Positions 1-20,000 of a stretch of 20,000 nucleotides of DNA are shown in pieces. Made by a program: the position numbers and the translations under genes. This DNA is from Porphyridium purpureum. Its lineage: Eukaryota. The notes beneath the pieces are model-generated. The model was not told the origin of the DNA. It was given only the letters and a program-made list of their open reading frames with translations, and ran no database searches. Position 1 is the first letter of the stretch; each line of letters begins with the position of its first letter. The stretch lies in the NCBI GenBank assembly GCA_008690995.1, contig VRMN01000003.1:2289886-2309885 (forward strand). Reading direction: 5' to 3'.

Positions 1-3000
1 GCCGTGACCAACACTTGATCACCAACTTGAAACTCCCGGGCATCCTTGCTTCGATCGAAGAACTTCTGCATTCTCCCCTGGGCTTCGATCAAATTGTCGC
101 GGACTTCTTCATGGACTTTGCACAGGCGAAACCAGTGCTCCGCCATGTCCTTCGTCTGTCCGTCGCGCGCAGGCCTCCACCCTTCGCTCGGTGGAAACCA
201 AGGATCCCTTCCATATACCACTTTGAACGGCGCGAATCCAGTGGCACTGCTTGGTGCAGAGTTGTACGCAAACTCGTACAACGGCAAGTCTCGCACCCAG
301 CCACTATTCGTCGCCATCAACTTGAGCATTTCCCGAATCACGCGGTTCACTCGCTCAGTTTGGCCATCTGTCTGCGGGTGGTTGGCGGTAGACATTGCCA
401 ACTTCATGCCCACCCGCTTGCTCAGCTGCTGCCAAAGCGTGGACGTGAACAGCGGATCTCGGTCAGATACAATTGACTTGGGGTATCCGAAACGGCTCAC
501 GACGTGCTTCACGAACAAGTCAGCACAACGCTTTGCTGTCAAGTCCTTGCGCGTCGGGATAAACAGCGCCATCTTCGAATAGCGATCCACCACAGTCATG
601 ATTGCATCACAGCTGCCTTCGCTCCGAGGCAGCTCCGTCACAAAGTCCATCGAGATGTCGACCCAAGGTCCTTCTGGGATCGACAAGGGCTTCAGCTTTC
701 CAAACGACCGATTCTCTGACTTTGTCACTTGGCACGCGTGACAAGTCTTCGCAAAACGGCTCACGTCTCGCTTCATCTTTGGCCAGTAGAAGCGAGTTAT
801 CAAAGATGCATAAGTTGTGTCCGCTCCACGGTGCCCTGCTGTCGAGATATCGTGGTGGAGTTGCATGACACGCTCTCTGAACTTCCTCGGTACGCAAACG
901 CGATTCCTCAAGTACAAGAGCCCAGCTTCCGTTCGAAAACCCTGGTGGGTCGGTAAATCTCCCATCAAAGTACCAAAGTCCGGGTCACTCGAGTACGAAC
1001 CCACGAATGCCTGGAAACCCGCACCAAATTCCTCACACCGAACTTGGTACTCTAGCGCGTGCACCTCTGGCTTCCTCGACAAAGTATCGGCTACCACGTT
1101 CGACTTTCCCTTCACATAGTCGATCGTGATGTCAAACTCGGCTAAAAAGTCCAGCCACCGTGCCTGACGGCCATTCAGCTCCTTCTGCGTCATCAAATGT
1201 TTCAACGCCTCATGATCTGTATGCAGCACAAACTTTGCTCCGTACAGATAAGGTCGAAACTCTCGCAGACAGTGAATGACGGCCATGAGCTCACCTTCAT
1301 AGCTGCTGTACCTGGTCTCTCGGTCCAGCAGCTTCCTCGACGTAAACGCGACCGGTCTGCCTTCCTGTGCCAGCCATCCCCCCACCGCGACTTCAGAGCG
1401 GTCCGTGTACACCTCAAATGGCTTTTCAGGGTCTGGCAAGGCCAACACCGGCGCTTCCGTCAACATCCCGACAATCTTCTTGAAGGCCGACTTGCCTTCA
1501 TCTCCCAGCTCGATCAGCTGCTTCTTCGACTTTGCGTTCTGCAACAGCGAAGTCAGCGGCGCCACGACGGTAGAGTATCCTTTGACAAACCTGCGAAACC
1601 AGTTTGTCATTCCCAAAAAGGATCTCAACTCCGTCACCGTCTTTGGCACTGGCCAATCTCTCAAAGCTTCCACCTTCCGTGGATCCATCTTCACGCAACC
1701 GTTTCCCACAATGTTCCCCAGGTATTCGACTTCAGAGACGAAGAAGCTGCACTTCTTGCGCTTCAACCGATACCCCGCCTTTTGCAAGCGCGACAACACT
1801 TCCTTCAGGACCTCGCCGTGCGACTGCCTATCCTTGGTGAAGACCAAAATATCGTCCAAGTAGACAATGACGGTCTTGTCCAGCAGATCTGCAAACAGCT
1901 CGTTCATGGCCCTCTGAAAAGTTGCCGGCGCGTTGCAAAGACCAAACGGCATCACACGGAACTCGAACTGTCCGTACCTGGTCTGGAACGCGGTCTTCGG
2001 CACGTCCTCTCTCCGAACACGCAATTGGTGGTACCTCGATGCCAAATCCAACTTTGAGAAACAATGAGCTGCGCCCAGTCGATCCAGCAACTCATCCATG
2101 TTTGGCAACGGATACCGGTCCTTCACAGTTGCGTCGTTCAACGCCCGATAATCAACGCACATCCTCATGCTGCCGTCTTTCTTCTTCACGAACAGCACGG
2201 GTGCTCCAAACGGGCTCTGACTCGGCTGGACGAATCCTTTGTCCAGCAAGTCACCCAAAGTCTCTCGGAGGACTTTCAACTCCGCAGGGCTCAGTCGGTA
2301 GACCCTGCCCACTCTCACAGGCTTCTCATCTTTCAGCCTAATCACATGCTCCACTGTTCGGCTCTCAGGCAGCCCTCGCGGCTCCTCAAACAGATTTTCG
2401 CAATCATTGAGCATCTTTCTCACAGAGTCAGCTTCTTTGCGCTCCACTGAACAGGGCTCCTCCCTTCCTTTCAGCACGCCGAGGTAGCACTCTTCTACCT
2501 CCTGACTCTTCAACAGCCGACGGAGCTCTTTCCGTGGCACCAGCATCTGCGTCATGCTCCAGGCCCTCTCCTCTCCGTAGGCCAACATGCCAGACTGCCA
2601 ATCAATCACTGGGTTCTCCCGCTTCAGCCACTCCATGCCCAGAATTGCGTCTTGTCCCGCAATCCGGCAAATGGCAAAGTTAGCGGCCCCCGAGTACCCA
2701 TCACTCAGTTCAAACTTGACATTGGAAACTTCTCCGGCTGTTTCCAATACGGACCCATCCGCTAGGGTCACTCTATCTCTCTTCCACGACGCCTTCTGCT
2801 TCAGGCCGTCGGATTTCTGCACAAAGTCCACGCTCATGAAGTTGTCCGTCGCGCCACTGTCAATCAAAAACGTGGCCTCTCCGTCGGACTTGTGCACTTT
2901 TCCTCGAACTCGAAGAAGCATGGCAGCTCCCATTCCTCCAAGTTCCTTGATCACGGGCTGATTTGCGCTCGAGTTTCGCCCACAAGGCGTCGGACAGCCA

Positions 3001-3119
3001 GACCTTGGCTTACCAAGGCCACCACAGCGGTCTCCATTGCCGCCCCTAGAGGTCTCGTAACGTCTGCGAGCCTCCTTTCCCTCTGACTGTCCGAGGAACC
3101 TCTCTACTCGAGCTCCTCG
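1..3119 (-). CDS. pol: Gypsy Pol polyprotein (aspartic protease, reverse transcriptase, RNase H, integrase), 3'-partial, in the -1 frame relative to gag
   Basis: Translated by hand; absent from the ORF track because it has no stop inside the window. Motifs found: FLIDSGATDNFM (DSG at 2861-2853), VYLDDILVF (YLDD at 1862-1851), RNase H VYTDRS...YEGELMAV...TDHEAL...NVVADTLSR, integrase H-x-GH...CHAC zinc motif, MDFV, IVSDRD, HPQTDGQTERVN, and FQVGDQVLV at the edge. DSG, YLDD, the RNase H Asp and the terminal motif are in the same frame. Confidence 0.95.
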
Positions 3120-3910
3120 TTTTTTGACTCCAGCGAGTCTCCCTCCAGCTGCTGGATAGTCTTCCTTGCCTCGGGACACTTCCTCGCGATGTGTCCCGGC
3201 CTTCCACAATTCCAGCATTTGAGCTCGGTACGAACACGCCTCTGACCCTGCACATGTCCCAGCTCCATCGGGACAGGTCCTTCCTGCGCTGCACGACCGA
3301 AAAATGGCGTCCTCACACTTGAATCACGCACGCCGCGGGTCGCATGAATGGCGTCGTCCACGACCACCGCCACCTGCGCAGCCTCCGCGAACGTACTCAC
3401 TCCTCGCTTGTACACTTCCAAGCGGACCTCGGGCTTCAGACCCCTCACAAAGCGGTCCATCATTTCTGCGTCCGACAAGTCCGGAATCACAAGTGCCGCG
3501 TCCTGAAAAGCCGCCACATACGCATGGGCCGGGCCTTTCTGCGAAAGACGCGTCAACTTGTCCCTTGCACGCCTGATCGAATCCTGCGGCGTGAACCGAG
3601 CACTCACGAGGGCAGCAAAATCATTCCACGTCGTGGGGATCTCCTGCGGGTAGCGCTCGCAATTCAGAACCCACCAATGAAGCGCCTCTCCCTCGAAATA
3701 GTCAGAAGCCAGGTCTACTGCACGCCTCTCCGCAAGCAGACGTTTCTCCAAATCGTCCGGGTGGATGCTCTCCAACAGCCGGCCCAAGATCTTCTTTCTC
3801 GCCTGGAACAACCACGTCTTCACAACCAGAAGGTCACGCTTCCCGTCGAACCTCATCAGACGGGCCTCCTTCGGGCCACGTGGTCCCAGCGTCTCCGAAT
3901 CAATCTCCAT
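3104..3910 (-). CDS. gag: Gypsy Gag (retrotransposon gag domain plus CCHC zinc knuckle), 268 aa
   Basis: ORF track. Contains GEALHWW...TWNDFAALVSARF...LSQKG...YVAAF...FVRGLKPEVR, a PVPMELG motif and the CWNCGRPGHIARKC knuckle. Confidence 0.95.
   Translation of the reverse strand: MEIDSETLGPRGPKEARLMRFDGKRDLLVVKTWLFQARKKILGRLLESIHPDDLEKRLLAERRAVDLASDYFEGEALHWWVLNCERYPQEIPTTWNDFAALVSARFTPQDSIRRARDKLTRLSQKGPAHAYVAAFQDAALVIPDLSDAEMMDRFVRGLKPEVRLEVYKRGVSTFAEAAQVAVVVDDAIHATRGVRDSSVRTPFFGRAAQEGPVPMELGHVQGQRRVRTELKCWNCGRPGHIARKCPEARKTIQQLEGDSLESKNEELE
3119..3125 (-). other. -1 ribosomal frameshift slippery heptamer A_AAA_AAC at the gag/pol overlap
   Basis: Minus strand reads TCA AAA AAC GAG in the gag frame, 5 codons before the gag stop. 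A -1 shift gives an open frame leading to the protease DSG motif. Confidence 0.8.
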
Positions 3911-4433
3911 GCTTTCTGGACTAAAGCACGCTCAACGACGACAACGACACAAACAGCAAGCCTCCGATGCTCACTTTCTCCAACAGCTGCGCGCACCACG
4001 AACGGGCTCGGTCGCCCTCACGAACACAAACCGACACACGAAGCTGTCCTCTCACGCACACACACGCACAGCAATCTTCCTCTGTTGCGCTGGATGGGGA
4101 GCGGCCCGGGCCTTTGCACTGGGGCGGGGATTATAGATGCGATCTTGTATGGAGGTGTTCGGCGCCTACCTTCGCAAAGGTGGTCGTGCGACACTAGGAT
4201 GAATCCTAGTGAAGGCTGACCGTTACGGCTCTTGCCTACTAATACGTGCTAAGGCAGAGAGCGAGTCCGCCGTCAAGGCCTAGGCCTATCGTACAGCCAA
4301 GACTGAGACCCGCTTCCACCCGTCGCACCCTCCGGATCGACTTACTCGAACCCCCTTGCCCGCAGACTCTCCCACCCAGGCAACCCCAGAGAAACTCTAA
4401 GAGAACCTTAGAGCAACCCCAGGTAACCAGCGA

Positions 4434-4441
4434 TGATACCA
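4434..4441 (-). other. Primer binding site (TGGTATCA, initiator tRNA-Met type)
   Basis: Minus strand reads ...GGTAACA-TT-TGGTATCATCGC, so TGG starts 2 nt inside the LTR end. Confidence 0.8.
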
Positions 4442-4539
4442 AATGTTACCAATGCTGTGCCTTTTTACTCTGCTTCTTCTTCTTTCCTCTTCTGTCTCCG
4501 AGCAAGACCTGACCGGCTAGTCCGGGCAGGCGCGTCGCC

Positions 4540-4547
4540 TTTTTATA
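4540..4547 (-). promoter_or_regulatory. LTR TATA box (TATAAAAA)
   Basis: Plus-strand tttttata inside the LTR, in the element's sense orientation. Confidence 0.65.
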
Positions 4548-4622
4548 CCCTTACTTCCGCCAGGGACAGCAAGGCGCCACGAGAAATGACAATGCAAATC
4601 ATTGGCATTTCTGCGCACGTCT

Positions 4623-4656
4623 AGAAGTTTCCGGAACCTCTAGAAGCTTCTAGAAA
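4623..4656. promoter_or_regulatory. Two adjacent heat-shock elements (nGAAnnTTCnnGAAn) in LTR U3
   Basis: aGAAgtTTCcgGAAc (4623-4637) and aGAAgcTTCtaGAAa (4642-4656), about 75-110 bp upstream of the TATA box. Confidence 0.7.
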
Positions 4657-6062
4657 CGGTTAAACGGTCTACCGGTTTAACGGCTTACCGGTTTCGGATT
4701 AACCGAACCGTTCTAGGTGACTGGGGTCGAACGGATAACAGTGGGCGAGCAGTGACTTTGCTCGATAACGCACGATCTATTGTGAGCCTGCCGTTTGGGC
4801 ATGTCGCCGAAGGCTTTTTGATCGCCGACGTGTAAATCCACGAGCCAACCTGCACGATCGCCGAGACGCTGCACGTGAGTTGGGAGGTTCCATTCTTTCG
4901 CCAGAAAAAATATTTGGCGAGCTTTGTGTAGCAGGATACGGTCGTATCAGCGCTCGCAGGTTTGCACAAGAGGCCAAGGACGCGATTTCGGTCTTGTCCG
5001 CGTAGTGTGTGAGTCGCACAGGATGTCAGCCCGTTTGATGATGGGCTGCTGCGGCGGGTACGTTTTTTTGATATTGTCGATGCCGTGATCATGAGAGACT
5101 ACTGCAAGGTACGTCATGTGGATGAAGAAGCGAAAGTGCTTTATTCTGCGTTCGGTCGCGATGGCGCGCCCCATGGAAGCGTCACCGTGTGCGACGATGT
5201 CGCGGGAATCGCGGCTTTACTCGGTTCAAACAGGAATATTCGCTTGCGCTTGCTGGCATCCACCGCATGTTAGCAGCGGGTAAGGATGAGAAACAGTGCG
5301 TATCCAAAACAGCTAGGAGAGGTTTGCGATTCATCTTCGCGCGCTAGAGCAATTCGTTGCGTTTGGACGGCGTGCTTGATCGCAGACGCCACGCACTTTG
5401 TCAAGATAGCAAGTATGCAGGTAGCGCACATGAATGGGAATGGGATACACAGCCTGGTTGCATGTGGCGAGGCTACGCCAAGCATGAAGGGGCATGACGC
5501 AAAGGCTGCGTGTGGGTGTAAAGGAATACTGTAATGCTCGCGACCGCGTCGCGTTGAGCTCGCGGGTGCAATCAATCGATTGCGACTTCTGAGGTTCTGC
5601 ATTGGCACCGTTCTCTGGGGCTTGGCCACTTTGGTTAGCATGCCGGTGTGTGACTCACCGCTGAAGTGGGCATGCGCGCGCTTCACGTGTTTTGGGTCAA
5701 TGTGTGCCTGGTAAAAGCTTGACCGTGTCTGCGGAGCCTGAGGGCCTCTCCGCGCGCGACTTGTGGAATGCGTGCTGTAATCCACGCACAGCACTCGAGG
5801 CATGCCCATCTTAAAGGGAGTCACTGCGTCGGGTATTGAAATCAGGCCATTGAGTTATGCTGTGCTCGCTCATTGTGGCGATCGCGCGTCTAAAAGCTGT
5901 ACCGCCATTGTCTCAAAAGGTGCGAAATTGGGGTCCTTGGACGTTAGGTACAGCACCGCGCCGCTGCTTTGTGGCACTTGGCGGCGCACGCCGAAATTTA
6001 GTCCGTCCAAGTACTAAATGGACCCGCTGGCGTGTAGAAGGATCTTTGCCTGCGCAAGTAGC

Positions 6063-6120
6063 GTTACTCTAGGGTTACTCTAGGGTTAGGGTTAAAGGAG
6101 GTTTTGCGGGTTGGGTTAGC
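6063..6120 (+). repeat. Telomere-like repeat tract: (GTTACTCTAGG)2 GTTAGG GTTA followed by degenerate GGGTT variants
   Basis: Read directly; same 11-mer as at 10545 and 18822. Confidence 0.75.
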
Positions 6121-6363
6121 TTACCTCATCTCTAGTACAGTTCACGATCCACACTGTACACTACTGTAGGGTCTTGTGCGGTGCCTTCGAAACGTGTACA
6201 ATACATCGTGACTGATAGTGCTAAGTATATTGTACTCGAACTCCACGCGCGACGACGATCAATAGTTGTGTACGCACGTTTTATACTTATTTTGATACTA
6301 CAGGAACAGCATACGCTCGACGAACCCGAGGGCCGGAGGGTAAGCTTTGCGGAAAGTGTTTGT

Positions 6364-9300
6364 CTAAGCATCATCATCACAACGCGTGCGGGCTTGGGCT
6401 CGTGCCGGAAATGCTCGTAGGACCCTGCGTTGAACGTGTGCGAATTGAAGATTGGCTACATCGACAGCTGCGTTGTATGGTGCGGAATTTGCGCGGGCGG
6501 CGAAGTCTCGAGCCTTCTGAATGAGCAGCCTTGAAAAGTCAGCCCGTGTCGGCTGTCTGTTTGGGTCAAAAGTACGCATCAAATGATTCAGTAGTTCCGT
6601 TTCAAACTGCGACAACACACTTCTTGGATTCTGTCGGCTCATGTCCCAGTTGAGCCAATGCCTGGTTTGTAGAAGAGAATCCAATGGATCCGCCTGTGGA
6701 CCCTGGACTACGATTGGATGATTGACTTGCTGGAATCGCTGCAGGTGGATTTCGATCCTGTTGCATGCCTGAGAATCATACTCTACAGAAGTATGTTTCA
6801 GGTGTAGTAGGGTCGTATGTTTCGTTTTCAAATTGATTGTGTCAGGTATACAAGAAATCAAACATTGCGCGGAGCTTTCGAGGAAGCCTAGGAGTGCCAG
6901 GAAGAACTGCTCGGGGTCTGGAAACTGCGCACGTGAGCGCGCGGCCATATCCTTGAACTTGCAACCCAAGTCGTCACGATCTGCCAACCTTGGGAGGTCG
7001 AACATTTTTGTCGCAATTGGACCCCAAACCCACTCATCCGCATATCCACGTGCATTTCGCTGCTTGGAAAAGATTTTCGTGCTGCAGAACGATCGCGCAG
7101 CGTCGAACTGACTTGGTTTAAGAACGACAAAGATATTATTTTCAAGAGCGAGCGCCCTCCAGCCCTCCTCTGTCATGCGGAAGGTTGCGTCGGTCTCACC
7201 GACAGGAAAAAAGTTAATTGATTGCATGCCGATGAAAAATAGTCTCACGAAGGATTTCCAGAAATCTTCGATAGTGGGCTCTGCCATGCTCAACAACTCA
7301 AGCAAGCTGTGCCTTTCCACTGGGCGTGATGCCTCGTCCGTGAAAGAAATCGAAGGCTTTCCAGCACCTCCAAAGTATGCCTGGGTAACGCGGTGTCCAC
7401 GAACTCTGCTGCTTGCGACCTGTGGAGGCGGCTTGAGGGCTTCTCGCGCATCACCATTTTCATGTCGAAATTGAAGCGTCAGCATGACCAACGCATGGCA
7501 CTCTTGCATTGGCTGAAACAAAACCTTGAGCTCGTGTGGCTCTGCATCATGACCGGAAACTTCCAGCCGGAAATTGACCATTCGCTGCCACACAACTTGC
7601 CCCGCCCATCCGCAGCCAACTGTCGCCTTGAAACCGCATGCGTCATACACAAGCTGCCGGTGCCATGTTTCATCCATGGGGTGGCGACGAAGCAAACCTG
7701 TCTGCAATGAGTACGCAGCGACCATTAGTGCGTGCAAAGGACGTCTTGCCAAGCTTATTTGTTCAAGAAACCTTCCAGTCGCACTGAAGTCACTCATACG
7801 CGCAAGTTGGCGTCCGGCACGTCGACTCAATACGTTGTAACAAGTTGCTGTGATTCTCAGATAGTCATTGAGATCTTGCGTTGAGCAAACGAGGACATAC
7901 CTCAAGCTAAAAAGCTGACTGACCCAAGCTAGCACAATTTGCCACAAGTTGGCTTCGACGCTCTCTCTGCCGTCATCGAAGTCGAAGAAGGTGGTCATGC
8001 GCAGCGGAACATGGCGCTCGCGAAGACTCATTCGAAATTCGCAGCGTACTCCATGGTCTGCGGTATCGGTCTCAGTCTCTGCTGCAATGGACTCTGCCAA
8101 TGCTTTTGTGGCACCATAAAGACTTTCAGCGTGCTCAAAGATGATGGAGCGATGCTTACTGATCCACGCGAGGGGCCTTAAAGCATGAGTATCAGAGCGG
8201 TATCGGCTGGTGTGGTATGCTTGGACGTAGCACGTATTTCGAGGAAAACCTCGACGTATGACACTCTCAGCACCACCTGCCGAAACAGAAGTTAACATAC
8301 TGCATGAGCCTCTATCCATTCGTGCACGGAATCCACTGACCTGTGGGAAATTGGCGAACCAGTCTTGCTGAATTATTCGCGGCGCGTAGCCTTTTGGAGT
8401 ATTTTTGATCCATGTTACTAAAGGGCTTTGCATGATATTGGAACTCCAAAGAACTGTATTTCCGCTTGACCCCGAAGTCCCTGCAGAAGGGATTGCGGTC
8501 ACCGCTAAGTCTACGTACACATGATTGCCCGGCACGGAACCATCGAACCCAACGCACCAACGTGACACAAAGCCTGTTTTCGCGTGGAATTGCACCATCA
8601 ATTGTCGCGTCACTTCCTGAAGGCTGCCGTTTGCAATTTTCTCCTTAAGTTCTACGAAAGTCAATCCCCAGAGCGTTGTGCTAACTAAACCTTTGAAGCC
8701 GATTGAGTCGATCAGAATCTGCCATCGACTCAAAAAATGCTGGTCCAAATAATCCACGACTCGCTGAAGAAAATGTCTTGCCACGTGAGCTCCAATAACA
8801 ATTGACAGAGATATAAATCTTGCACTTTCACCACGGGCTCGCTTTTTCGCGCTCTCGTAATTGGGCGGCATTCTCGCAAAAGTTACTGGATCCTTGACAT
8901 CTCGCACTGCCTCCAAGATAACAGATTCGTATATTAGTTTTCTGACATTCTCATCAGCCTGTGCTCCACGGATTACAATAAAAACGAGCTGCTGCTTATG
9001 GTTAGCCGCCGGCAACTCTCCGAGTTGGACAATCACAGTGTCGTCTCCAAAAGAAGGGAAACTGTCGGAATGGACTCGCAAGTTGTAAGCCTTGGACTCA
9101 ACTGCTCGGAGCCCGTGAAGGATAAGTGTGAATGATTCATCAGGGTGTAAACGGATGCCGCGCGTTACGACAATCAATGAATCGACGTCGAGCGTCATGT
9201 CAAACATCAAACTTTGCTCATTGACATGTTCAAACGGCGCATGGTGTGAAAGCGAACTCATTCCTAACCATAGATGATTGTCAGAAGCCACCCCATTTTC

Positions 9301-9411
9301 CGAGTTATCGCGAAAAGTATCACCTTGGAGCACCCACAGAATCCTCTCGTCATCAGTGACAATGCGTCGCATCCGATTCACCCATTCTCTGAAACTTGGC
9401 AGTTGTGCCAT
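6364..9411 (-). CDS. Large intronless hypothetical protein (~1015 aa from the ATG at 9411; frame open to a GTG at 9627)
   Basis: Uninterrupted 1087-codon ORF with globular-protein-like composition from MAQLPSFREW onward. The first 72 codons lie in repetitive sequence and begin with GTG. No confidently recognised domain. Confidence 0.85.
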   Translation of the reverse strand: MAQLPSFREWVNRMRRIVTDDERILWVLQGDTFRDNSENGVASDNHLWLGMSSLSHHAPFEHVNEQSLMFDMTLDVDSLIVVTRGIRLHPDESFTLILHGLRAVESKAYNLRVHSDSFPSFGDDTVIVQLGELPAANHKQQLVFIVIRGAQADENVRKLIYESVILEAVRDVKDPVTFARMPPNYESAKKRARGESARFISLSIVIGAHVARHFLQRVVDYLDQHFLSRWQILIDSIGFKGLVSTTLWGLTFVELKEKIANGSLQEVTRQLMVQFHAKTGFVSRWCVGFDGSVPGNHVYVDLAVTAIPSAGTSGSSGNTVLWSSNIMQSPLVTWIKNTPKGYAPRIIQQDWFANFPQVSGFRARMDRGSCSMLTSVSAGGAESVIRRGFPRNTCYVQAYHTSRYRSDTHALRPLAWISKHRSIIFEHAESLYGATKALAESIAAETETDTADHGVRCEFRMSLRERHVPLRMTTFFDFDDGRESVEANLWQIVLAWVSQLFSLRYVLVCSTQDLNDYLRITATCYNVLSRRAGRQLARMSDFSATGRFLEQISLARRPLHALMVAAYSLQTGLLRRHPMDETWHRQLVYDACGFKATVGCGWAGQVVWQRMVNFRLEVSGHDAEPHELKVLFQPMQECHALVMLTLQFRHENGDAREALKPPPQVASSRVRGHRVTQAYFGGAGKPSISFTDEASRPVERHSLLELLSMAEPTIEDFWKSFVRLFFIGMQSINFFPVGETDATFRMTEEGWRALALENNIFVVLKPSQFDAARSFCSTKIFSKQRNARGYADEWVWGPIATKMFDLPRLADRDDLGCKFKDMAARSRAQFPDPEQFFLALLGFLESSAQCLISCIPDTINLKTKHTTLLHLKHTSVEYDSQACNRIEIHLQRFQQVNHPIVVQGPQADPLDSLLQTRHWLNWDMSRQNPRSVLSQFETELLNHLMRTFDPNRQPTRADFSRLLIQKARDFAARANSAPYNAAVDVANLQFAHVQRRVLRAFPARAQARTRCDDDA

Positions 9412-9740
9412 ATCTGGTACAGCCGCGCGCGTCGTGAGTTCAGATGGGCCCGACCGCGGCGCAATGGCCGATGCGAGAAACAAAAACGACTCCGCGCAAT
9501 GCCACGAACGACGCGGCGGACGACCCGACCCAACGAACGCAGCGAATAAACACCACTCACGACAAACGACTCCGCACAGCAAAAGCGCCAAACAACGGGA
9601 CGCAATGAACGTGTCGAACGACGGCACCCGCCAAACGACCCCACGTAACGACCTCGACGAACGCCACGAGCCTTCGACGAGGCGAACAGCACCACGCGAT
9701 GAACGCGGCGTACGGCTCTACGCAACGAATGCAGCGAGGT

Positions 9741-9860
9741 CAACGCGACCAAAGCGATGAGACCAACGCGACCACAGCGACCAAAGCGATAAGACCAACG
9801 CGACCAAAGCAATGAGACCTTCGCAGCTTTCGCGGCCTTCGCGAACAACGCGACCAAAGC
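9741..9860. repeat. Degenerate ~9-bp tandem repeat (GACCAA(A/C)GC) upstream of the 1015-aa ORF
   Basis: caacgcgaccaaagcgatgagaccaacgcgaccacagcgaccaaagcgataagaccaacgcgaccaaagc... Confidence 0.75.
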
Positions 9861-9976
9861 CTGTAAATAGACGCACGTCTAAAGTATTAGCCCCAGTCAT
9901 CCACCGCGAAAAAAAAAGAAAGTTTCGATGTGATTACTGACTGGCAAAGGCGACGTAAATCACGACGTGCTTTGGG

Positions 9977-10544
9977 TTATGCAGGTAAAAAAAAGGAGTG
10001 CAAACTGTCTAAGGTCCAAAGTTGCGATTTGTATAGTAAAAGATATCGTTTTAATATAGAAAATATTTTACTATGGATGTCTGTGTCCAAAGTTGACTTT
10101 TCATAGGTAAATGCCAGTGTTTTAGTATGATAAATTGAGCATATAAAACGACCCCAAAATAGTGGTAGCAATGCATTACATGGACATCCCACGTTAGTTG
10201 TGACTAAGCATAGTAAAACAAGCATTTTGCTACCCGAGCATATAAAATTGACATTAAAATGTGATAATATAGACATCACGCTGGACTGAGGACGCAGTGC
10301 TTGTTGAGCGATCGGCGGGTGGTGCGTGAGGCGCGGCGGAGGAGTTGCGCGGGCGGGGCGGAGATGAGGGGCGCTGGCGGGCGCGGGCGGGGAGCGGAGA
10401 GAGGAGGGGCGCCGGCGGGCCGGAGGCGCAGGCGCGCGGGCGCAGTCGTGGGGCGCGTTGAGGCGCGGTTGGAGCGCGGGTCGGCAGGAGAAATGGGATT
10501 GTCTCGGGAAGTAGCGTGGGATCGCGAAGTGCAAAATGGACCTC
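9977..10544 (+). repeat. Dispersed repeat copy A (AT-rich block, GC-rich tail, and first bases ATGGACCTCG of a Sel1-gene paralog)
   Basis: Aligns by eye with 15737-16230 and 16940-17508 (shared gtccaaagttgcgatttgtatagtaaa, aatgcattacat, aagcatagtaaaaca, gctggactgaggac, gggatcgcgaagtgc.aaatggacctcg). Confidence 0.88.
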
Positions 10545-10563
10545 GTTACTCTAGGGTTACTCT
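10545..10563 (+). repeat. Telomere-like tract GTTACTCTAGGGTTACTCT at the 3' end of non-LTR copy 1
   Basis: Read directly; the same junction occurs at 18822-18841. Confidence 0.85.
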
Positions 10564-10623
10564 GAAATCGTTTTACATTATAAATCTAAAGGGCCTAAGC
10601 TCTGTACCTATGTATCAGCAAAG

Positions 10624-13600
10624 TCAGTGCGACTCTGCTTCCGATTCCGAGAGTACCTCGCCTACAAAGAGGCGCCTGCCCGTCTCCAGCCAGTGCTGCG
10701 AGGCAACTGGCAGAGTCGGGCCCGGGTGCCGTAGAAGCACCGCCGCCGCCACCGAGCGGTACACCGCGAGCGACAGCGACCGGTGGAGCGCCGTGCTCGC
10801 CAGCATCTTGCTGACTCCACGGTGCCGCATGTACGCCGCCACCAGAGTCTCCAGAAACGCGGCTCCGCACTGTTCGCGCCGGCCGTACGTGTCCAGAATG
10901 ACCGCCTGGAACGACACGCCAGCAGCGTCGCCGGTGCGCGCAGCAGCCTGGAAGGAGGCCTGCTTGCGACGCGCCGCTGCCGCCAGTGCCGCTCCGTCGG
11001 ACCGCCTGGTGCCGGTGCGGTCGGGCACCACCACCGCCACATCGACCCACGTGCTGTCCACGCGCAGGTCGCCCGGCCGGCGCAAGTCTGCCGCGCGCCG
11101 GGAAGGCGCGCACCGCGCTCCACCGGCAAGCCAGCGCGCGCAAAGGCAACCACGGCGTCGACCACCAGTGCCGTGCCGACCGTACCGCGACGGCCCGGGA
11201 TGGCACTTGAGCGCGTGGTGACCGTGCTGGTCCAGCGCGGCCCCAGACGGCATCCGAGCTGCCCGGAGCGCCGGACACGGACGCCGCGCTGCGTGGCTCA
11301 CAGACAGGCCAGCATGTGCCGCACGGCCGCGCGCCATGCATCTGCGCTCAGCGGCGCGCTTCCGTGCGTGCCGGCCAGCTGCGTGGCAGACGGCATCCCG
11401 AGCCACGCCAGCGCGTGCGGCGAGCTGACGCTGCGACGTCGGTGAAAGTCTGGGTCGGACGGGGCCGGCGCGTGGGACCAATCTGAGCACCATTGTCGAT
11501 AAAAGCGACGGCTCCCACGTGCCTGCGAGTCCAGCAGGGCTTCCACATCTTCGTCTGGCTCCAGGCGCCACTGCGCCACGGCGTGTGCGTCTCCGTCAAA
11601 CCTTCGCCACCACTGCGCGAGCGACGGAGGGTACACGCGTGCGGGCGGGTTGTCCACCACGCGCGCGGCAGCACGACTGCCGGCGGCAAACGCAAACGGC
11701 GCAATGTCTGCCACTGCGGTCAGTCCCAAGCCGCCAAGCGAGCACGGCAGCCGCCACTCGGCCTTGCACGGCTCGCCGACCTCGTGTGCCATCACACCCA
11801 GCGCGCGCGCGACAATGCTGCGCCACGCGCGGTCAAACTCGGCAAAGATGCGAGTCACGACGGGCGGAGGCATGGTGCGCGCCAGGTGCATCAGGCGCTT
11901 TGGCCCGACGCTGCCCCGCAGGAGGTAGAACGCCTCTTCGGGGTGGCTGAGCTTGGCCACCTGCTCCGCCAGCTGGAGCACCTGCGCGCTCGCGTTGGTG
12001 ATCGGCACGAGCGACTCGCCACTGCCGGTAAAGTCGAGCGGCACACCGAGCAGCTGCGCTTGGTCCCACGCCAGACGCGGCAGGTCGGCGAGTCCCGCGG
12101 GCACGACTGCCGTGTGCATTCCGGGAGGCAGTACCAGCTGCGTCTTGGTGCGGTTCACGCACATGCCGTGCACGGCCGCGTCGCTCGAAAAGGCGTCCAG
12201 GAAGCCTTCCAGCTGCGCGAGCGGCCCCACAATGCTGCCGTCGTCCAAGTACCAGAACGACGACAAGCCCGGCGACTCGGTGTCTGCCAGCACCTTGTGC
12301 AGCACCAGCGAGAACAGCAAGGGCCCCAGCGGGTCGCCCTGCTGCACGCCGCACGCGCTGGCCAGCACATGGGCGCCCACTCGCAGCGGAGCCGGATGCG
12401 CGTACGTTGAGCGCACCAGCGGCCACAGCGCGGGGAAACGGCCCTGCACGATGCGCATCAGCGTGGGCCGGTCGACGCAGTTGAACGCGTTCGCAATGTC
12501 GACGAGCAGCACGGCTGTGCCTGGACTCTGCATCGCGGCAGGCGCGTCCCCAGCACCGCGCCTTCGAGCCCGGCCGGGCGTCCCACGCCGTACTGGTCGG
12601 GCCGGAGCGACTCGGCTGCGTCGCTGCCCAGGTGTGCCAGCACCAGCTTGCCCAGCACGCGCCGCAGCAGCTCGCCCACTGCAATCGGTCGGACGCCGCC
12701 GTCCTTCTTCTTGAGCGGGATGAGGCGTGCGTGGCTCCACAGCGCGCCAGCTTGCGGATGCAGACCAACACTGGCGATGCGCTTGAACGCGAGAGCCACG
12801 GCCCCGAGCGCCGTGTCACCCGCCACGGGCGTGCGGATGACCTGCTGCAGCACGCCTATGGACCACCGCGACGGTCCGCACCCGCTGGTGTGCGGAATGG
12901 CCAGAATGGACTTGCGCACCGCCTGCGCGTCCCACGGCACGCGCATGCACTGCAGCTGGTCGATACTGACCGACTCGACTGGTGCGACGAGCGCTGCGTC
13001 GTGGCTGCCGCTGCGAGCCCCTGCCTCTGGATGCAGCTCGCGCAAGCGCGCCAGCACCGAGTCCGTGACGTCGTGCACACCCGCCGACTCGACCAGTCGC
13101 GCCGCGGCGCCAATGTGGTTGGCGCGCACATGCTGCACGATGCGGTGCTCCACGGCCTCTGGTGGTATGGGTCTGAGGTGTTGACCGTCCACCACAGGCA
13201 CCGAGTCGAGCAGTGGCTCGAGCGCATCGGAGCGCCACATCTTGAGCCGCGTCGCCAGGTATCTTGCCCGCGCGCGCGTGCTCTGGCGCTCCATGGGCAG
13301 GCACAGCACCAAAGTCGGAAACACCCACAGCTTTCCGAGCGCGCGGACTTGTGCGGCCTCGGACGCGGCTTCGGCCAGCTCCGTGAGCATGCTGCTGAAC
13401 TCGAGCGCAACGTCCGGCGCAAACTTTGCCGGTACGCGCTTCCACGTGCGCACGCGCAGCCCCAGCACCCAATCTACCGTTTGAAGAATGGTGAGTATGG
13501 GGGCGTCGAGCAGCGGCGACGGCGGATGCGCAGCGGCGTGACGCGCCGTCGACACATGCGTGTCTGCGGCCGTGTCGGAGCCACTGCGAGTGTCGTCGCA

Positions 13601-15171
13601 TGCTCCGCTTTACGCCCGCTCGCTGTTACGGAACTGCACGCGACCGCCGTGCCCTTCAAATCTCGGCACAACGCGCAGGATCCCGGCATCGACTGCGCTG
13701 GTGGCGCACGGACAGCGCAGGCAGCAAGCACATCGCGCCCGCCAGCCCAGCGGCCAGTAACCTCTGAGCGCGTCCGGTGGCACTGCGGCAAGTGTTTCAG
13801 CCGAGTGATTACTGCCCGCCAAGTGCCGCAGCAGCCCAGCTGGCTCGGCCCACGAGGCCTCACAGCCTGCCACGGGGCACGCGTTCCACAGCGCTCGGCA
13901 CGCTGGACACTGGCACGCGTCTTGGGGCTGCACGTCGCGCACCGCCCATCCGCACGCGTTTCGCCTCAAGTGCAGGCTGGACAGAAGCTCGGCACTCGCT
14001 GGCTCCGTCGGATGTGCCGCACGCCAGTGCTTGCCCAGCTGAGCCGCACTCTGGTAGCGTCGCATGCACTCGGCGGCCGGACATGCGTGCGGCGCTTCGA
14101 GCTGCGCCATCCGAGCCACGCTGCGTCGCGAAATGTCAAAGCCCGCCGGACGGAGCATGCGAGCAGAGCTGCGAACAGATGCGCTGTGGCCAAGCACGGC
14201 ATCCCTGACCGCTATGTGTGCGGCAGGCCCCGCACGCTGGCGCGGTCGTCGTGCGGACCGACGTGTGGCGCGACCGTCTGCCGAGTCTGCGACACTGTGC
14301 GGAGATGCCACTGGCGCGTGCGTGGCTGCCAGCACCCTAGAGCTGGAGATGTGCGCATCCACCACCGCACTCTCTCGCGCAGGACCAGCACGCTCACGCA
14401 GTTCCACTGGTCCACCCGGCCGACTTTGTAGCCGGCCTCGCCCAGACGCTCGACGAGCGCGGGGGCGTGCGGGAGCCCATTCCGCGTCGCTTTCCTCACT
14501 TGAGGCTAGAAGACTTGCGCCGCGCGGACCGGGCCCTTCCCACGAGTCAGAAAGTGTCTCACTCATGAGCCCCGAAGGGCGAAGCCGCCGAGGGAGCCGG
14601 AGTCACAGCGTGGACCTCCGGAAGTGCGGGAGCGGCAAACTCTTGGCCGCTGGCACGGCCCACTGCGGAACGGTGGGCGTGGGCCGTCTTGCACTGCATG
14701 CAGCGTGCGCGGTGCTGGTCCCGAGAGTGCGCAGAGCCGCTGAGCGCATGCCATGCTCCACACGGGTCTGCAGCGAGTCCTGCCTCGGCAAGCGCGTCTG
14801 TCGAGACCGCGTGATGCGCCGCCGTGGCACTTGGTTGCGTGGCGCACCATGCTGGCCTCGCGCGCCGCTCGGAACAAGCAGGCCGGAAACGGGCAGCGCA
14901 GCGCCTCGTCCGAGCTTTCGGAACGACTCGAGTCGCCGGCGTCAGAAGTTCCGGCGACCGGTGCATGCTGCACAGCGTCATTCAACAGACAGGCGGCAGT
15001 GCTCAGACCCGCACTGTTCTGCTGCGCGTGCTCAACGCCTCTGTCTACTGCAGACTCTTGCTGCGCTGCTTCCGCCGTCACTCTAGGCACTTCTGCAGCC
15101 GCCCGGGAACGCTTGGGCAAAGTAGCCCGGGACGGAGACACCGTGCGCGATAACGCGGCAGCGGCGGGTCG
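10624..15171 (-). pseudogene. Zinc finger-RT-RLE polyprotein of the CRE-like element, split by several frameshifts
   Basis: Fragments: 14563-15141 (CPFPAC..HATKCH), 13610-14566 (CPAAEC..HWRAAH; CPVAGC..HLAGSNH), 12458-13555 (RT N-terminal part), 11298-~12545 (RT core and thumb), 10624-~11310 (DQHGHHALKC, GRH, RPGD, VDVAV, RRKQ, FQAVILDTYG). The frameshifts may be decay or assembly indels. Confidence 0.85.
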
Positions 15172-15377
15172 CTAGGGTTACAGGCGTTTTTGAGGTACGG
15201 TGGGGCAGATCCTAGGGTAGGGTTTCTCTGCGCATACAGGTACAGCGATTACACTTGATCCAGCAGTACAGTATGTATAGGTTACAGGCGTTTTTGAGGT
15301 AGGGTGGGGCGTAGCGTAGGGTTCCTCACTTCGTGTTGAGGGTGCAGTGAGTACACTGGTCCTAGGGTTACATAGGG
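15172..15377 (+). repeat. Cluster of degenerate telomere-like motifs (CTAGGGTTAC, TAGGGTAGGGTTTCTCT, TAGGGTT) with an internal ~33-bp direct repeat
   Basis: TAGGG(TT) occurs repeatedly; tag(g)gttacaggcgtttttgaggta(c/g)ggtggggc at ~15173 and ~15278. Confidence 0.65.
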
Positions 15378-15409
15378 CGTTTGCACTCGCACTCGCTTGA
15401 AACCTCGTT

Positions 15410-15665
15410 TTATATAGTAAAACGTGGTTGTTTTGATATAAGAAACAGCGAGGTTTTAGTGATTTTTGCATAGTACAATGCCTCTGTTTTAGTAAGAAAA
15501 GTGTGTACTATAAAGGATAATTTATTCGCTATGAGAAACTAAGCATGTAAAAACGACCCAAACATTGCGGTGTAATGCATTGTATTGCCATCCCTAATGG
15601 AGAACGAGGAAGCATATAAAAACGACACTGTTTGGATATCTTACTAGAGCATACGAGAATGCCAT
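15410..15665 (+). repeat. Dispersed repeat copy B (strongly diverged AT-rich block)
   Basis: Collinear motifs tatagtaaaa, tgttttagta, agcat.taaaaacgaccc, gtaatgcatt, catccc, aagcata.aaaac, gagcata. Confidence 0.6.
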
Positions 15666-15736
15666 AGTATTATGATGATGGTGACGGCCAAAGGGACGAG
15701 ATTGACGCAAGGGCGGAGGTGTGTGGGCGATGGTGC

Positions 15737-16230
15737 GTTATACAGGTGGAAAAAAAAGTAGGGCAGATTGTCCAAAGTCCAAAGTTGCGATTTGTATAGT
15801 AAAATGGTATCGTTTTAATATAGAAAAATTTTACTATAGAGGTTCGTGTCCAAAGTTGACTTTTTCATATGTAAATGGCATTGTTTTAGTACGAAAAATT
15901 TAGCATAGAAAGACGACCCCCAAAAATGGGTGGTAATGCATTACATGGGCATCCCGAATTGGCTGTGAATAAGCATAGTAAAACAGTATTAGTTTGCTAT
16001 GGTACCGAGCATGGAAAATTGGCACTGAAATGTCATAAAATGCGCATCAAGCTGGACTGAGGACGAAGTGCCTGTTGCGCGATCAGCGGGTGGTGCGGGC
16101 GGCGGGGTGAGAGACGTGGAGCGCGAACGGTTGGGCGCGGGTTGGCGGGCGCGAACTGAGCGCCAGCGAGCACAGGCGATTCTGGGCGCAGGCGCAGTCG
16201 GGCGGTGGGGCGCAGTGAGGCGTGGGCACG
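15737..16230 (+). repeat. Dispersed repeat copy C
   Basis: Near-collinear with copies A and D. Confidence 0.88.
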
Positions 16231-16760
16231 GGCGCGCGGAGGTACGCGAGTGGTGTCGGGCGGTGGCGTCGCGCGCGTCGGCGGGTAACGACTGGGCAAG
16301 ATTTTGGTTGGCGTCTCGCACGGCACGAGCCAGCACTTGGAGCAAGGCGCGAGGTTGGGGCGCGCAGCAGCTGAGAAATGACACACGGAAGCCATATGGT
16401 AGGTTGATGTTAAAAAACATTAAAAAATTGTTTACTCAAGTATGCTACAAATTTGTCATTCAAAATGGATATTGAATGATAGCCCGTGCTCACGCGCTCA
16501 CAACGATATGCTTTGTATGTGAAACGATGCTTGTATGGCTGAGATATATGACTGTAAGTACCTTTGCAGCGGGTACGCCATTCGCAATGGTGGGTACATG
16601 ATCCGCAGCCATGGGTCCGGCATCCGCATATGCTGAACCCCTCAAATCACGGGTGCCAGCAGAACTTCTACCCTAGAGGTACAGTATCTTCATACTGGGG
16701 ACGCGGTATCCGCTTATGATGGGCATGCCAGCCGCAGCATGTGTACAGTCACGCGAAACA

Positions 16761-16860
16761 TAGTGGGCACGTGATTTGCAGGGTGGGTACGTGATCCGCA
16801 AGGTGGGGACGCGAGCCGCAAGGTGGGTACGCGAGCCGTAAAGTGGGTACGTGATCCGCA
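16761..16860. repeat. 20-bp minisatellite, 5 units (consensus aggtgggtacgtgatccgca)
   Basis: tagtgggcacgtgatttgca / gggtgggtacgtgatccgca / aggtggggacgcgagccgca / aggtgggtacgcgagccgta / aagtgggtacgtgatccgca; related motifs at ~16590 and ~16697. Confidence 0.85.
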
Positions 16861-16939
16861 CGTTGGGTCGAGTCAATAAGGGTACCATAATAAAATGGTG
16901 TTGATTTACTATAAGTGAGTACAACAACGATACTGTACA

Positions 16940-17508
16940 GTTGCACAGGGGAAAAGAAGAGTAGATTGTCCATAGTCCAACGTTGCGTTCTGCATAGTAC
17001 CACGGTATCGTTTTAATATGAAAATAATTTACCATAGCGGTTCGTGTCCATAGTTGCCTTTTTTATAGGTGAATGGCATTGTTTTAGGCTGAAAGATTTA
17101 GCATAGAAAGACGACCCCCAAAATGGGTGGTAATGCATTACATAGGCATCCCGAATTCGCGGTGAATAAGCATAGTAAAACAGTATCATTTTGATATGAT
17201 ACCCGAGCATAGCAAATTACCATTGAAATGTCATAAAATGCGCATCAAGCTGGACTCAGGACAAAGTGCCTGTTGCGCGATCAGCGGGTGGTGCGGGCGG
17301 CGGGGTGAGAGACGTGGAGCGCGAACGGTTGAGGCCATGAGCGGGCGCGAACTGAGCGCAGGCGAACCATGAGCGCCAGTCGAGGCGCAGGCGCGGAGCG
17401 CAGTCGAGCGGTGGGGCGCGTTGGGGCGCGTTGGGGCGTGGGCCGGCAAGGAGAAATGAGATTGTCTTGGGAAGTAGAGTGGGATCGCGAAGTGCGAAAT
17501 GGACCTCG
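16940..17508 (+). repeat. Dispersed repeat copy D, running into the Sel1-repeat gene start
   Basis: Near-collinear with copies A and C. Confidence 0.88.
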
Positions 17509-18676
17509 CTGCAGCGCAGCAGGGTGAAGGAGAAGCCACTTTCACGGAGCATGCGAGCGGCGAGAAGGAGAAGCAAGATTTGCGGCGTACTGCGCCGCCG
17601 CCGCCGAGCAAGCGTGCCGAAAGGAGGCGCAAAATTCGCCGGACAATGTGCCGCGGAGCATGTGCGGCGCGAGGAGGTGCGAGGTGATGTTGCACAACGC
17701 GATGGCGCAGCCGCCGCCGAGCAAGCGCGCCACAAGGAGGCACGGGATTCGCCGCACAACGGGCCAGTGCTGTGGAGCATGCGCGACGCAATGAGATGCG
17801 AAAAGATGTTGCACGACGCGAGGGTGCAGCCGCCGCCGTGCAAGCGCGCCGCTAGGAAGAGGCGCAAGAGCTTGCCGGATAACGCACCGTTGCCGCGGAG
17901 CACGCGCGCCATGAGCAGGTGCGAGATGTCACACAACGCGCCACTGTAACGGAGCAGGCGCACCGCGAGGAGGCGCGAGATTCGGCCGAACAATGCGACG
18001 GCGCCGCCGCCGCCGAGCAAGCGCACCGCGACGCTGCAGACGGCCAGCAACGTGGTCAGATTGTCGAGGACGACGACGGCCTTGCGGAATCGCTGATGTG
18101 GTTACGAGAGATGGCGCTGTTTGGAGACGCGTACGCGTAGGTCAGGCCGGGCCATGTCTATAGCGAGGGTTGGGGCAGGGTGCGCGAGGACGGTCACGCG
18201 GCGGTCGAGTGGTGGCACAAGGCCGCGGAACAGGGGCTTGCAGTGGCGCAGTTTTACTTGGGCTTTCTTTACAAAGGTGGGGATGGTGATCTGCCAAGAA
18301 CGGAAGCGCAGCGGTCGAGGAGTTCCGCAAAGTCGCGGATCATGGCGATACGCGGGCGCCGTTTCTTTTGAGCTTTTGCTGTGACAGCGGGCGGGGCGGT
18401 GCGCCAGAGGACAAGCGCTCAGCGATCGAGTGGCCACGCAAGGCCGCCGAATATGGAGACGCACTGGCACAGTGCGATTTGGGCGCTTCGTTTTCTAATG
18501 AGTCAGGCAGGCTGTGCGAGGACAAGCTCGCGATGGGTTAGTGGTGGCGCAAGGCCACGGAGTAAGGAACCGCAGGGAAGCAATAAAATTTATGCACTTG
18601 CTACCGTATTGGTTAAGGCAGTGTGCGCAAATCCAGACGCGACAGCTGCGCAAGGGATGAGCGCGGGTGCGCTTGA
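17499..18676 (+). pseudogene. Sel1-like repeat (SLR/TPR) protein pseudogene with N-terminal A/E/Q/R-rich repeats
   Basis: SLMWLREMALFGDAYA*, AVEWWHKAAEQGLAVAQFYLGFLYKGGDG, FRKVADHGDTRAPFLL, AIEWPRKAAEYGDALAQCDLG, WWRKATE*G. Multiple stops and frameshifts. Begins MDLAAAQQGEGE. Confidence 0.85.
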
Positions 18677-18690
18677 GCACACGTGAGAAT

Positions 18691-18757: not shown

Positions 18758-18766
18758 GATGATCGC

Positions 18767-18820: not shown

Positions 18821-18821
18821 A

Positions 18822-20000
18822 GGTTACTCTAGGGTTACTCTGAAATCGTTTTACATTATAAATCTAAAGGGCCTAAGCTCTGTACCTATGTATCAGCAAA
18901 GTCAGTGCGACTCTGCTTCCGATTCCGAGAGTACCTCGCCTACAAAGAGGCGCCTGCCCGTCTCCAGCCAGTGCTGCGAGGCAACTGACAGAGTCGGGCC
19001 CGGGTGCCGTAGAAGCACCGCCGCCGCCACCGAGCGGTATACCGCGAGCGACAGCGACCGGTGGAGCGCCGTGCTTGCCAGCATCTGGCTTACTCCACGG
19101 TGCCGCATGTACGCCGCCACCAGAGTCTCCAGAAACGCGGCTCCACACTGTTCGCGCCGGCCGTACGTGTCCAGAATGACCGCCTGGAACGACACGCCAG
19201 CAGCGTCGCCAGTGCGCGCAGCAGCCTGGAAGGAGGCCTGCTTGCGACGCGCCGCTGCCGCGAGTGCCGCTCCGTCGGACCGCCTGGTGCCGGTGCGGTC
19301 GAGGAACGCCTATACATCGTGCGTGCTGTCCGCGCCAGGTCGCCCGGCCAGCGCAAGTCAGCCACGCCGGGAAGGCCTCATATCCGCGGCAAATACAGCG
19401 GCGCGCTCGAGGCAAACCACGGCGTCGACCACCAGTGCGTGCCGACCGTACCGCGACGGCCGAGATAATAACGCGAGCGCGTGGTGACCGTGCTGGTGTA
19501 CCCAATACCAGACGGCTGTGCCCGATGGCGCGGACACGGACGCCGCGCGCTGCGTGGCTCTGAACGAACCGCTGTCGCTGACCACGCCATGCAGCTGCAC
19601 TCGGCGCCTTCCATTGCGATGCCAGCCAGCTGCGTGGCAGACGGCGCATCTGACACGCCAGCGCGGTGCGGCGAGCCCTGACGCCTTTGCGACGTCGGTG
19701 AGGATCTGGGTCGGACGGGGCCGGCGCGTGGGACCAATCTGAGCACAATTGTCGATAAAAGCGACGGCTCCCACGTGCCTGCGAGTCCAGCAGGGCTTCC
19801 ACATCTTCGTCTGGCTCCAAGCGCCACTGCGCCACGGCGTGTGCGTCTCCGTCAAACGTTCGCCACCACTGCGCGAGCGACGGAGGGTACACGCGTGCGG
19901 GCGGGTTGTCCACCACGCGCGCGGCAGCACGACTGCCGGCGGCAAACGCAAACGGCGCAATGTCTGCCACTGCGGTCAGTCCCAAGCCGCCAAGCGAGCA
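18822..20000 (-). mobile_element. CRE-clade non-LTR retrotransposon, copy 2 (3' end; continues beyond the right edge)
   Basis: GGTTACTCTAGGGTTACTCT followed by sequence nearly identical to 10564 onward (3' UTR, RLE C-terminus, post-RT region). Confidence 0.93.

Follow-up and report, generated by a model that had tools for sequence, protein, structure and literature searches.

Introduction

HeT-A encodes a Gag protein with zinc knuckles, and the yeast Y' elements are protein-coding units that are bounded by interstitial telomere-like tracts and have spread among chromosome ends. Among the closest described systems are CRE-clade elements that target telomeres, MoTeR in Magnaporthe and FoTeR in Fusarium (PMC7367193, PMC12857005). 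MoTeR elements point their 5' ends toward the chromosome end, show seeds of 1-7 nt at truncation junctions, and leave stable tracts of at most two repeats (PMC7367193). MoTeR2 and MoTeR1 agree over 860 bp on the 5' side and 77 bp on the 3' side, and the reverse transcriptase (RT) region of MoTeR2 is replaced by 786 bp with no obvious function (PMC7367193, PMC12857005). In the portions of the literature consulted, the RT-less companions described were MoTeR2, without obvious coding function, and HeT-A, which has Gag only. One such source names insects, fungi, Chlorella, Giardia, rotifers and a lizard as bearers of telomeric retrotransposons; no red alga appears in the portion consulted (PMC10088271).

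Here we analysed a 20,000-nt stretch of contig VRMN01000003.1 from Porphyridium purpureum, a red alga (positions 2,289,886 to 2,309,885; hereafter the window), in which an intact gene for a 1015-amino-acid (aa) protein is attached by its 3' side to the same repeat tail as two CRE-type retrotransposons. We tentatively read the interval from 6063 to at least 9972 as an RT-less unit, a non-autonomous resident of a telomere-type CRE array that would be copied in trans by the CRE RT. No description of this repeat, unit or arrays in Porphyridium was found in the literature searched, with most subscription papers and repeat-database entries outside the search.

An intact gene joined to a repeat tail

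The unit was divided into the following features.

6063..6081, + strand: 19-nt tail GTTACTCTAGGGTTACTCT, a candidate remnant of an interstitial telomere (11-mer TTACTCTAGGG); the same 19 nt recur at 10545 and 18823
6082..6125, + strand: two TTAGGG-type units, then a degenerate G-run tract; C-rich 3' end on the gene strand
6126..6363, - strand: 3' untranslated region (UTR); low antisense RNA signal starts about here, from RNA depth
6364..9411, - strand: intact 1015-aa open reading frame (ORF) of no known family, from frame analysis and paralog alignment
9412..9972, - strand: 5' region, poor in T on the + strand; holds the composite tandem repeats of 9741-9843

The interval 6364-9411 on the minus strand was one stop-free frame of 1015 aa, the remaining five frames holding 28-51 stops each, and the longest ORF over 2000 shuffles of 6063-9900 reached 292 aa. 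The ATG at 9411 lined up with the first Met of the paralogs described below, and paralog P0006 starts at that same Met. No splice joint inside the ORF was listed in the RNA reads, whose depth was low there. The orientation was that of both CRE-type elements and also of a Ty3/Gypsy element, all on the minus strand. From the stop codon to the repeat tract we measured 270 nt (to 6094) or 282 nt (to 6082), and on this 3' side perfect repeat units lay to the left and degenerate G-runs to the right. The initial annotation, made from the sequence alone, was thus borne out in its description of an intact, intronless 3-kb ORF, co-oriented with the CRE elements and ending about 270 bp past its stop in telomere-like repeats that are perfect on the left and degenerate on the right.

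The 5' side was less simple than had been proposed. The reported 9-bp tandem array was present at 9741-9843, but it was a composite of 9-, 14-, 23- and 32-bp periods in which any 9-mer occurred only about three times. An end of the unit at 9900 was not supported, since a repeat of about 570 bp begins at 9973 and runs to 10544, where it is cut by a CRE tail. The 3' UTR of the unit did not fold unusually as RNA (z 0.04), and a bacterial promoter scan, irrelevant for this DNA, returned zero promoters.

The repeat tail as a candidate telomere sequence

The 19-nt sequence GTTACTCTAGGGTTACTCT was identical at 6063, 10545 and 18823, which are the plus-strand starts of all three minus-strand segments. 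With at most two mismatches, TAGGGTTACTC gave 13 matches in the window against 1.9 expected, and none of 200 shuffles reached 13. A repeat shared by the 3' sides was therefore confirmed, as the initial annotation had it, but the perfect tract was short (only 2.7 copies of 11 bp) and its telomeric nature is our proposal. The 11-mer TTACTCTAGGG is probably the telomere repeat of Porphyridium; it can be likened to the candidate Galdieria telomere TTTATT(T)AGGG (PMC3622300). Probes of the human type TTAGGG and of the Cyanidioschyzon type failed in P. purpureum after BAL31 (PMC3622300), telomere data for red algae are mostly missing (PMC7046594), and another source held nothing on Porphyridium telomeres in the portion consulted (PMC10943592).

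A scan with the 19-nt motif gave four metagenome matches without further similarity to the window and zero viral matches. An unrelated, otherwise dissimilar metagenome contig (L009:2790-2900) bore a degenerate 10-11-bp tandem array in which this 11-mer is present about 2.5 times.

Reads from other CRE copies carried the tail plus an extra TAGGGT unit, like the ORF unit. Since the tail was common to two segments with unrelated 3' UTRs, the target is a more likely source of its sequence than either of the elements. The geometry of the window fits the MoTeR pattern, with the G-rich strand on the plus strand and the chromosome end to the right. The reversed gradient of the repeats had been taken as a sign that the degenerate part is the unit's own end. 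The gradient itself stood, but the argument was weakened, because variant repeats of MoTeR lie 5' and the 5' side of the first CRE copy is likewise degenerate; the tract at 6082-6125 could instead be a relic.

CRE copies and their arrays

Three features of the window belonged to the CRE elements.

10545..15171, - strand: CRE-type retrotransposon without long terminal repeats (non-LTR), copy 1 (CRE1), with C2H2 fingers, RT, restriction-enzyme-like (REL) motifs, a broken frame, and 3' tail at 10545
15172..15400, + strand: degenerate telomere-like tract on the 5' side of CRE1
18823..20000, - strand: CRE copy 2, 3' end with the same tail

The assignment to CRE rested on N-terminal C2H2 fingers, an RT with YLDD and C-terminal REL motifs, and a SLACS RT was among the named matches. 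The coding region of CRE1 was split over several frames, which may reflect decay or assembly error. In CRE copy 2, the part at 19260-19690 was indel-rich between 98%-identical flanks, suggesting a poor long-read consensus; the CRE frameshifts here may be partly assembly errors.

In a search limited to proteins of 277-884 aa, the RT of the window was 95-100% identical to P. purpureum proteins, and the species held near-identical CRE copies plus a second family at 42-51% identity. The P. purpureum CRE proteins P0013, P0015-P0017 and P0008 represented at least two, perhaps three, coexisting families, two of them on scaffold scf282_42. Contigs bearing CRE proteins were mostly short (12 of 14 below 100 kb and 9 of 14 below 21 kb, among those listed). 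Three of 16 gene models aligned with the window (P0008, P0015 and P0108) fused the 3' half of one CRE to the next CRE on the same strand; these models are automatic and show only order and strand. At position 10557, five X21 reads with a T-run, read as poly(A), suggest that the CRE RNA is polyadenylated within the tail. RNA over the CRE 3' end (10529-10700) was mostly antisense, partly read-in from the flank of another locus through the tail.

Junctions, and passive capture as an alternative

The sequence on the left of the unit was delimited with a contig of another run.

4741..6062, no strand: left flank, ending at 6062, with other sequence beyond in the X16 contig

This X16 contig (3846 nt) matched 4741-6062 apart from 16 differences and 6 gap letters, but departed from the window at both ends, once where an LTR begins and once exactly at 6062/6063, the start of the tail; two short pieces of its continuation were absent from the window. 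Because the departure falls exactly there, 6062/6063 is likely to be a real point of attachment. The 570-bp repeat is cut by the CRE tail at 10544/10545, and 32 X22 reads and the copy of that repeat at 16952 continue differently. No target-site duplication was found at the junction of the unit, and the flank of CRE1 at 10544 was not repeated at the other end of CRE1. With cut flanks and no duplication, the junctions resemble truncation followed by attachment, not insertion with duplication.

Two observations on read data concern the 3' end of the unit. The X16 depth in the bin 5906-6106 was 649, indicating abundant matching sequence; summed contig depth is no copy number and was not counted as evidence. 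At position 6141, all nine antisense X22 reads had G, whereas the window and one sense read had T; the X22 strain may thus have another allele, or another copy, of the unit's 3' end.

Outside the 19-nt tail, the UTRs of the unit aligned with the ends of CRE1 no better than shuffles did. The best match of 6082-6200 in the window was to 15172-15400, on the 5' side of CRE1 (score 82 versus a mean of 53). Homology of the unit's 3' end to that tract was not accepted, as the likeness was only compositional: 20 of 1000 dinucleotide shuffles reached it, and 130 of 1000 when the telomere-like part was left out.

These observations bear on passive capture, in which break-induced replication or end joining would have attached a subtelomeric gene family on the distal side of a short interstitial telomere. 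On this view the tract at 6082-6125 would be what is left of a CRE 5' end, and the family would owe its spread to recombination, like the telomere-linked helicase (TLH) regions of fungi and yeast Y'. We regard this course of events as next in probability after copying in trans, and give it real weight. The similar tract on the 5' side of CRE1 and the lack of UTRs common to unit and CRE are what it would lead one to see, but the likeness of the tracts lost significance once the repeat words were taken out. It also agrees with the interval between the CREs (15400-18822), where mixed repeats and a Sel1 pseudogene are found, and with three reads that join the flank family, at 4892, to the left end of the 570-bp repeat at another locus. 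MoTeR offers a precedent, as element relics that carry short telomere tracts lie next to duplicated internal sequence there (PMC7367193). On the other hand, there is no need for a random breakpoint to lie right behind the stop codon of an ORF that is intact and co-oriented, and an internal, conserved donor gene was not found in the protein searches.

A protein family with a paralog on a CRE scaffold

Among 1.84 billion protein representatives, four scored, namely the query itself, two P. purpureum pieces and one unnamed 140-aa fragment, which was the only relative outside Porphyridium in that search. The record of the query itself is on a contig of 2,309,885 bp. The 1015-aa protein had no match in Pfam, PHROG or NCBIfam, none among PDB sequences, and none in viral, metagenome or prokaryote contigs, plasmids or phages; a word search gave nothing further. 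For the 10 ORFs of the window, no exact-sequence match occurred in the protein collection searched. The nSTAND3 rows returned for the protein by the Atlas were rejected, as their scores were below 0.8 and the Walker A motif was absent.

Paralog P0006 was 45% identical to the 1015-aa protein over 608 aa. P0003 and P0006 were 99% alike and lay on contigs of 13.5 and 16.4 kb, and the C-terminal piece P0004 was identical on two contigs, so the second member of the family was duplicated recently. The splits in the paralogs may be due to decay or to an unpolished assembly. A paralog (FVE85_9796) and a CRE (FVE85_9792) stood on the same scaffold, scf273_44 (13,530 bp), four locus tags apart, and FVE85_9792 shared its 90% cluster with a copy that is 97% identical to the RT of the window. 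This linkage is the main independent support for tying the protein family to the CRE arrays. The initial annotation had suggested that a single-copy gene in conserved synteny elsewhere, with no telomere-repeat junction at other copies, would speak against a mobile element. Single copy holds for the window copy, which is in a one-member cluster, and fails for the family, whose paralogs occupy several loci.

Transcription of the unit, and the case for an ordinary gene

RNA was sampled from three runs of one study, at 20-25% of each run. Over 6107-8518, mean depth was 1.3, 5.8 and 2.4 antisense versus 0.2, 1.4 and 0.1 sense in the three runs. The antisense signal started just right of the repeat tract, and a little sense RNA was present near the 5' half, in X22. 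Antisense transcription has been described for Drosophila HeT-A and TART (PMC5537684).

The gene might instead be an ordinary, lineage-specific host gene that happens to lie beside a healed break, or beside a CRE tail that is an element-made microsatellite and not a telomere. The intact frame, the one-member cluster, the presence in runs of several studies and some sense RNA agree with this explanation. Against it, the X16 contig lacks the gene at this site, the RNA was mostly antisense, and the paralogs are recently duplicated on the 13.5- and 16.4-kb contigs, one of them sharing a scaffold with a CRE. We consider an ordinary gene the least probable of the explanations examined here.

Does the protein have its own enzymatic activity?

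The initial annotation had raised the possibility of a mobile element with its own enzyme. Rep_trans nickases have a TBP-like (TATA-binding protein-like) catalytic fold. An alignment of five plasmid Rep proteins showed invariant D46, R140/D142/D146, Y191 and R212/E214 (in RepC, D46, D142, Y191 and R212/E214). In the 1015-aa protein we noticed loose motifs in the Rep_trans order: D77, D301-L-A, V-Q-A-Y399-H and V-R456-x-E458. D77, D301, Y399 and E458 were identical in the 612-aa paralog, R456 was common too, and the last two motifs (Y399 and R456/E458) were also kept in the unnamed 140-aa fragment. The loose patterns were composed after the sequence had been seen, so the shuffle count of 0 in 20000 does not count as a test; in the paralog, the first pattern is missing. 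Unannotated fungal proteins may have their motifs in a similar order.

Of the strict Rep_trans motifs (RxDxAxD, TxYxG, RxYxKKxE and WRxE), none of the four was present in P0001 or P0006. Profile-profile comparison with five Rep_trans proteins gave a probability of 0.1-0.2%, which is background level, with very shallow query profiles (Neff, the effective number of sequences, 1.2-1.4). The two AlphaFold2 models of the protein failed, with a pLDDT (predicted local distance difference test) of 35.4 and 36.7, and Foldseek with these models found no match at E up to 0.001. The top VIA-align rows were designed alpha/beta proteins (Z 8.7, root-mean-square deviation 2.9, 97 aligned), and Rep_trans structures were absent among the best 50 rows for these query models of pLDDT 35-37, a result that speaks neither for nor against any fold. 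The claim of an own enzyme drew no statistical support from family, profile, PDB or fold searches. Nicking activity of the 1015-aa protein is possible but unsupported.

This proposal would make the unit an autonomous DNA element with its own Rep_trans/MOB_T tyrosine nickase; it would move by way of single-stranded or circular intermediates and attach itself to telomere repeats. The four loose motifs in the Rep_trans order and their conservation in the paralog point that way, as do both weak models, which would set Y399 and E458 at or close to strands that lie about a helix, and the Rep proteins present in rotifer Terminons (PMC6431247). The missing strict motifs and the low profile probability, the latter from shallow query profiles, argue against it, as does the lack of any Pfam, PHROG, NCBIfam, plasmid or phage match, and the motif spacing was far longer than in RepC. 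We hold an autonomous nickase element to be improbable. It is equally improbable that the unit is the first member of a eukaryotic family of telomere-targeted elements with an own Rep_trans-like tyrosine nickase, which would stand in chromosome-end arrays with several CRE families and, together with them and the 11-bp TTACTCTAGGG repeat, build the ends of Porphyridium chromosomes.

Other features of the window

Two further features flank the segments described above.

1..4740, - strand: Ty3/Gypsy LTR retrotransposon; gag 3104-3910, pol from 3218 to 3 and past the window edge, LTR about 4444-4740 (Pfam RT, RNase H, integrase, protease and gag; LTR ends by sequence)
9973..10544, no strand: dispersed repeat, about 570 bp long, which the CRE tail cuts at 10544; perhaps part of the unit, perhaps not

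The pol frame of the Ty3 element was open for 1072 aa to the window edge, with protease, RT, RNase H and integrase domains. Its gag and pol frames overlapped, the element was apparently intact and its LTR was strongly transcribed; reads ran from 4740 into a polypurine tract. The Ty3 insertion at 1-4740 is likely recent, because the X16 contig is without the element at 4741. The neighbours of the gene had been called decayed, which may be true of CRE1, split over frames, but is not true of Ty3 with its open pol.

Copies of the 570-bp repeat lay at 9973-10544, 15734-16340 and 16952-17508, with a diverged part at 15400-15733. It consisted of an AT-rich half of imperfect palindromes (13 copies of a 26-nt unit) and a GC-rich half, and its left end started with letters resembling GGGTTA and with a run of A. 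The repeat may itself be a short non-autonomous member of these arrays. A broken Sel1-repeat gene (18090-18600, plus strand) lay between the two CRE copies, as did tandem arrays of 20, 119, 10 and 20 bp (16763-16868, 17592-17851 and 18690-18819).

Discussion

Our best single reading of the unit, held tentatively, is that of a resident of the CRE array copied in trans by the CRE RT. It is built on what was observed: the ORF, the shared tail, the same orientation, the junction without duplication, and the paralog on a CRE scaffold. The junction lies 270-282 nt beyond the stop, at a place where one would expect the end of a transcript, and this position just past the stop, together with co-orientation and paralog linkage, favours a resident copied in trans. 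The initial annotation had named cargo mobilised by the CRE RT as one of two options and compared it with the non-autonomous MoTeR2. The junction and the paralog linkage sustain the first part; the comparison fails, as beyond the 19-nt tail the unit and the CRE have no terminus in common.

Several points weigh against copying in trans. Linkage with a CRE on a scaffold was seen for one of three paralog contigs. The window protein was alone in its cluster (one member, one contig) and no second copy of the unit was seen, which counts against current mobility. At least half of the words of the stretch occurred in runs of four studies besides the possible source, as for a fixed locus. No long repeat array was present within the 20-kb window, and variant repeats of MoTeR lie at 5' ends (PMC7367193). 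The evidence from X16 amounts to a single contig, in a run whose type is uncertain, and as 6063-6064 is GT, splicing is formally possible, although the next exon would be more than 14 kb away. Poly(A) was not present at the unit junction, and the 3' and 5' regions of the unit, which have nothing but the tail in common with those of CRE1, offer no evident cis signal for the RT; the likeness to 15172-15400 is, as said, compositional. Sense reads at the unit's 3' end were essentially none, in data whose strand assignment rests on library convention and the Ty3 LTR reads.

If the unit was indeed copied in trans, the array could have arisen as follows. The flank would have broken and been healed with TTACTCTAGGG repeats, started in phase on a short seed. 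An RNA of the unit, with a 3' end complementary to the repeat and C-rich, would have paired with the G-strand end at some 1.7 repeats out, to be reverse transcribed there. The new 5' end would have been truncated and healed again, and CRE1 and later CRE2 would have attached likewise. The outcome would be a head-to-tail array with its 5' ends toward the present or a former chromosome end. The 1015-aa protein was likely kept by selection for the unit's own spread, and would most plausibly be a nucleic-acid-binding helper with a role as for the Gag of HeT-A.

The junctions yield a specific candidate telomere repeat and suggest that a red alga has CRE arrays of the MoTeR-like kind. An RT-less companion that codes for a large, conserved protein from a family not described before would add a new type of component, more so if the protein were an enzyme. 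What carries the finding is this testable telomere candidate, the red-algal CRE arrays and an uncharacterised protein family tied to CREs.

Compared with the known systems, the locus resembles MoTeR1/MoTeR2 and FoTeR in that a REL-type RT element and an RT-less companion stand in head-to-tail arrays. Short repeat tracts and seeds at the junctions, the lack of a clear target-site duplication and tandem repeats toward the 5' side are also as in MoTeR and FoTeR. With MoTeR2 in particular it has in common the head-to-tail, same-orientation arrangement with a short repeat tract between. Unlike MoTeR2, it has 19 nt in common with the CRE and a 1015-aa ORF conserved with a paralog, and its telomeric site is proposed on the strength of the repeat. 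Terminons of bdelloid rotifers pair their 3' ends with G-rich overhangs, and the unit is like them in its 3' attachment via a telomere-complementary stretch and in that their accessory ORFs, including Rep proteins, are arranged head to tail (PMC6431247). Unlike Terminons, the unit has no Penelope RT, and Rfam, searched at gathering score and with E allowed up to 1, gave no match in it, hammerhead ribozymes included. As a protein-coding unit bounded by interstitial telomere-like tracts it is like the fungal telomere-linked helicase regions (PMC12857005). It differs from Y' and TLH, as the 1015-aa protein has no helicase family match and no Walker A motif. The loose order D, D, Y, RxE recalls Rep_trans (PF02486, pT181 RepC), whereas the strict motifs and profile support of RepC are absent and the protein is about three times longer. 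Like HeT-A, the unit has one ORF and no RT, would depend on a partner's RT, has all 3' ends one way and shows mostly antisense RNA. Unlike HeT-A, the 1015-aa protein has no Gag similarity, no CCHC zinc knuckle and no Pfam match, the 3' UTR is short (270-282 nt), the repeat tail is without an A-run and the partner is of CRE type. Having no shared termini, Gag or poly(A), the unit is a member of neither MoTeR2 nor HeT-A, and its arrangement is like that of both.

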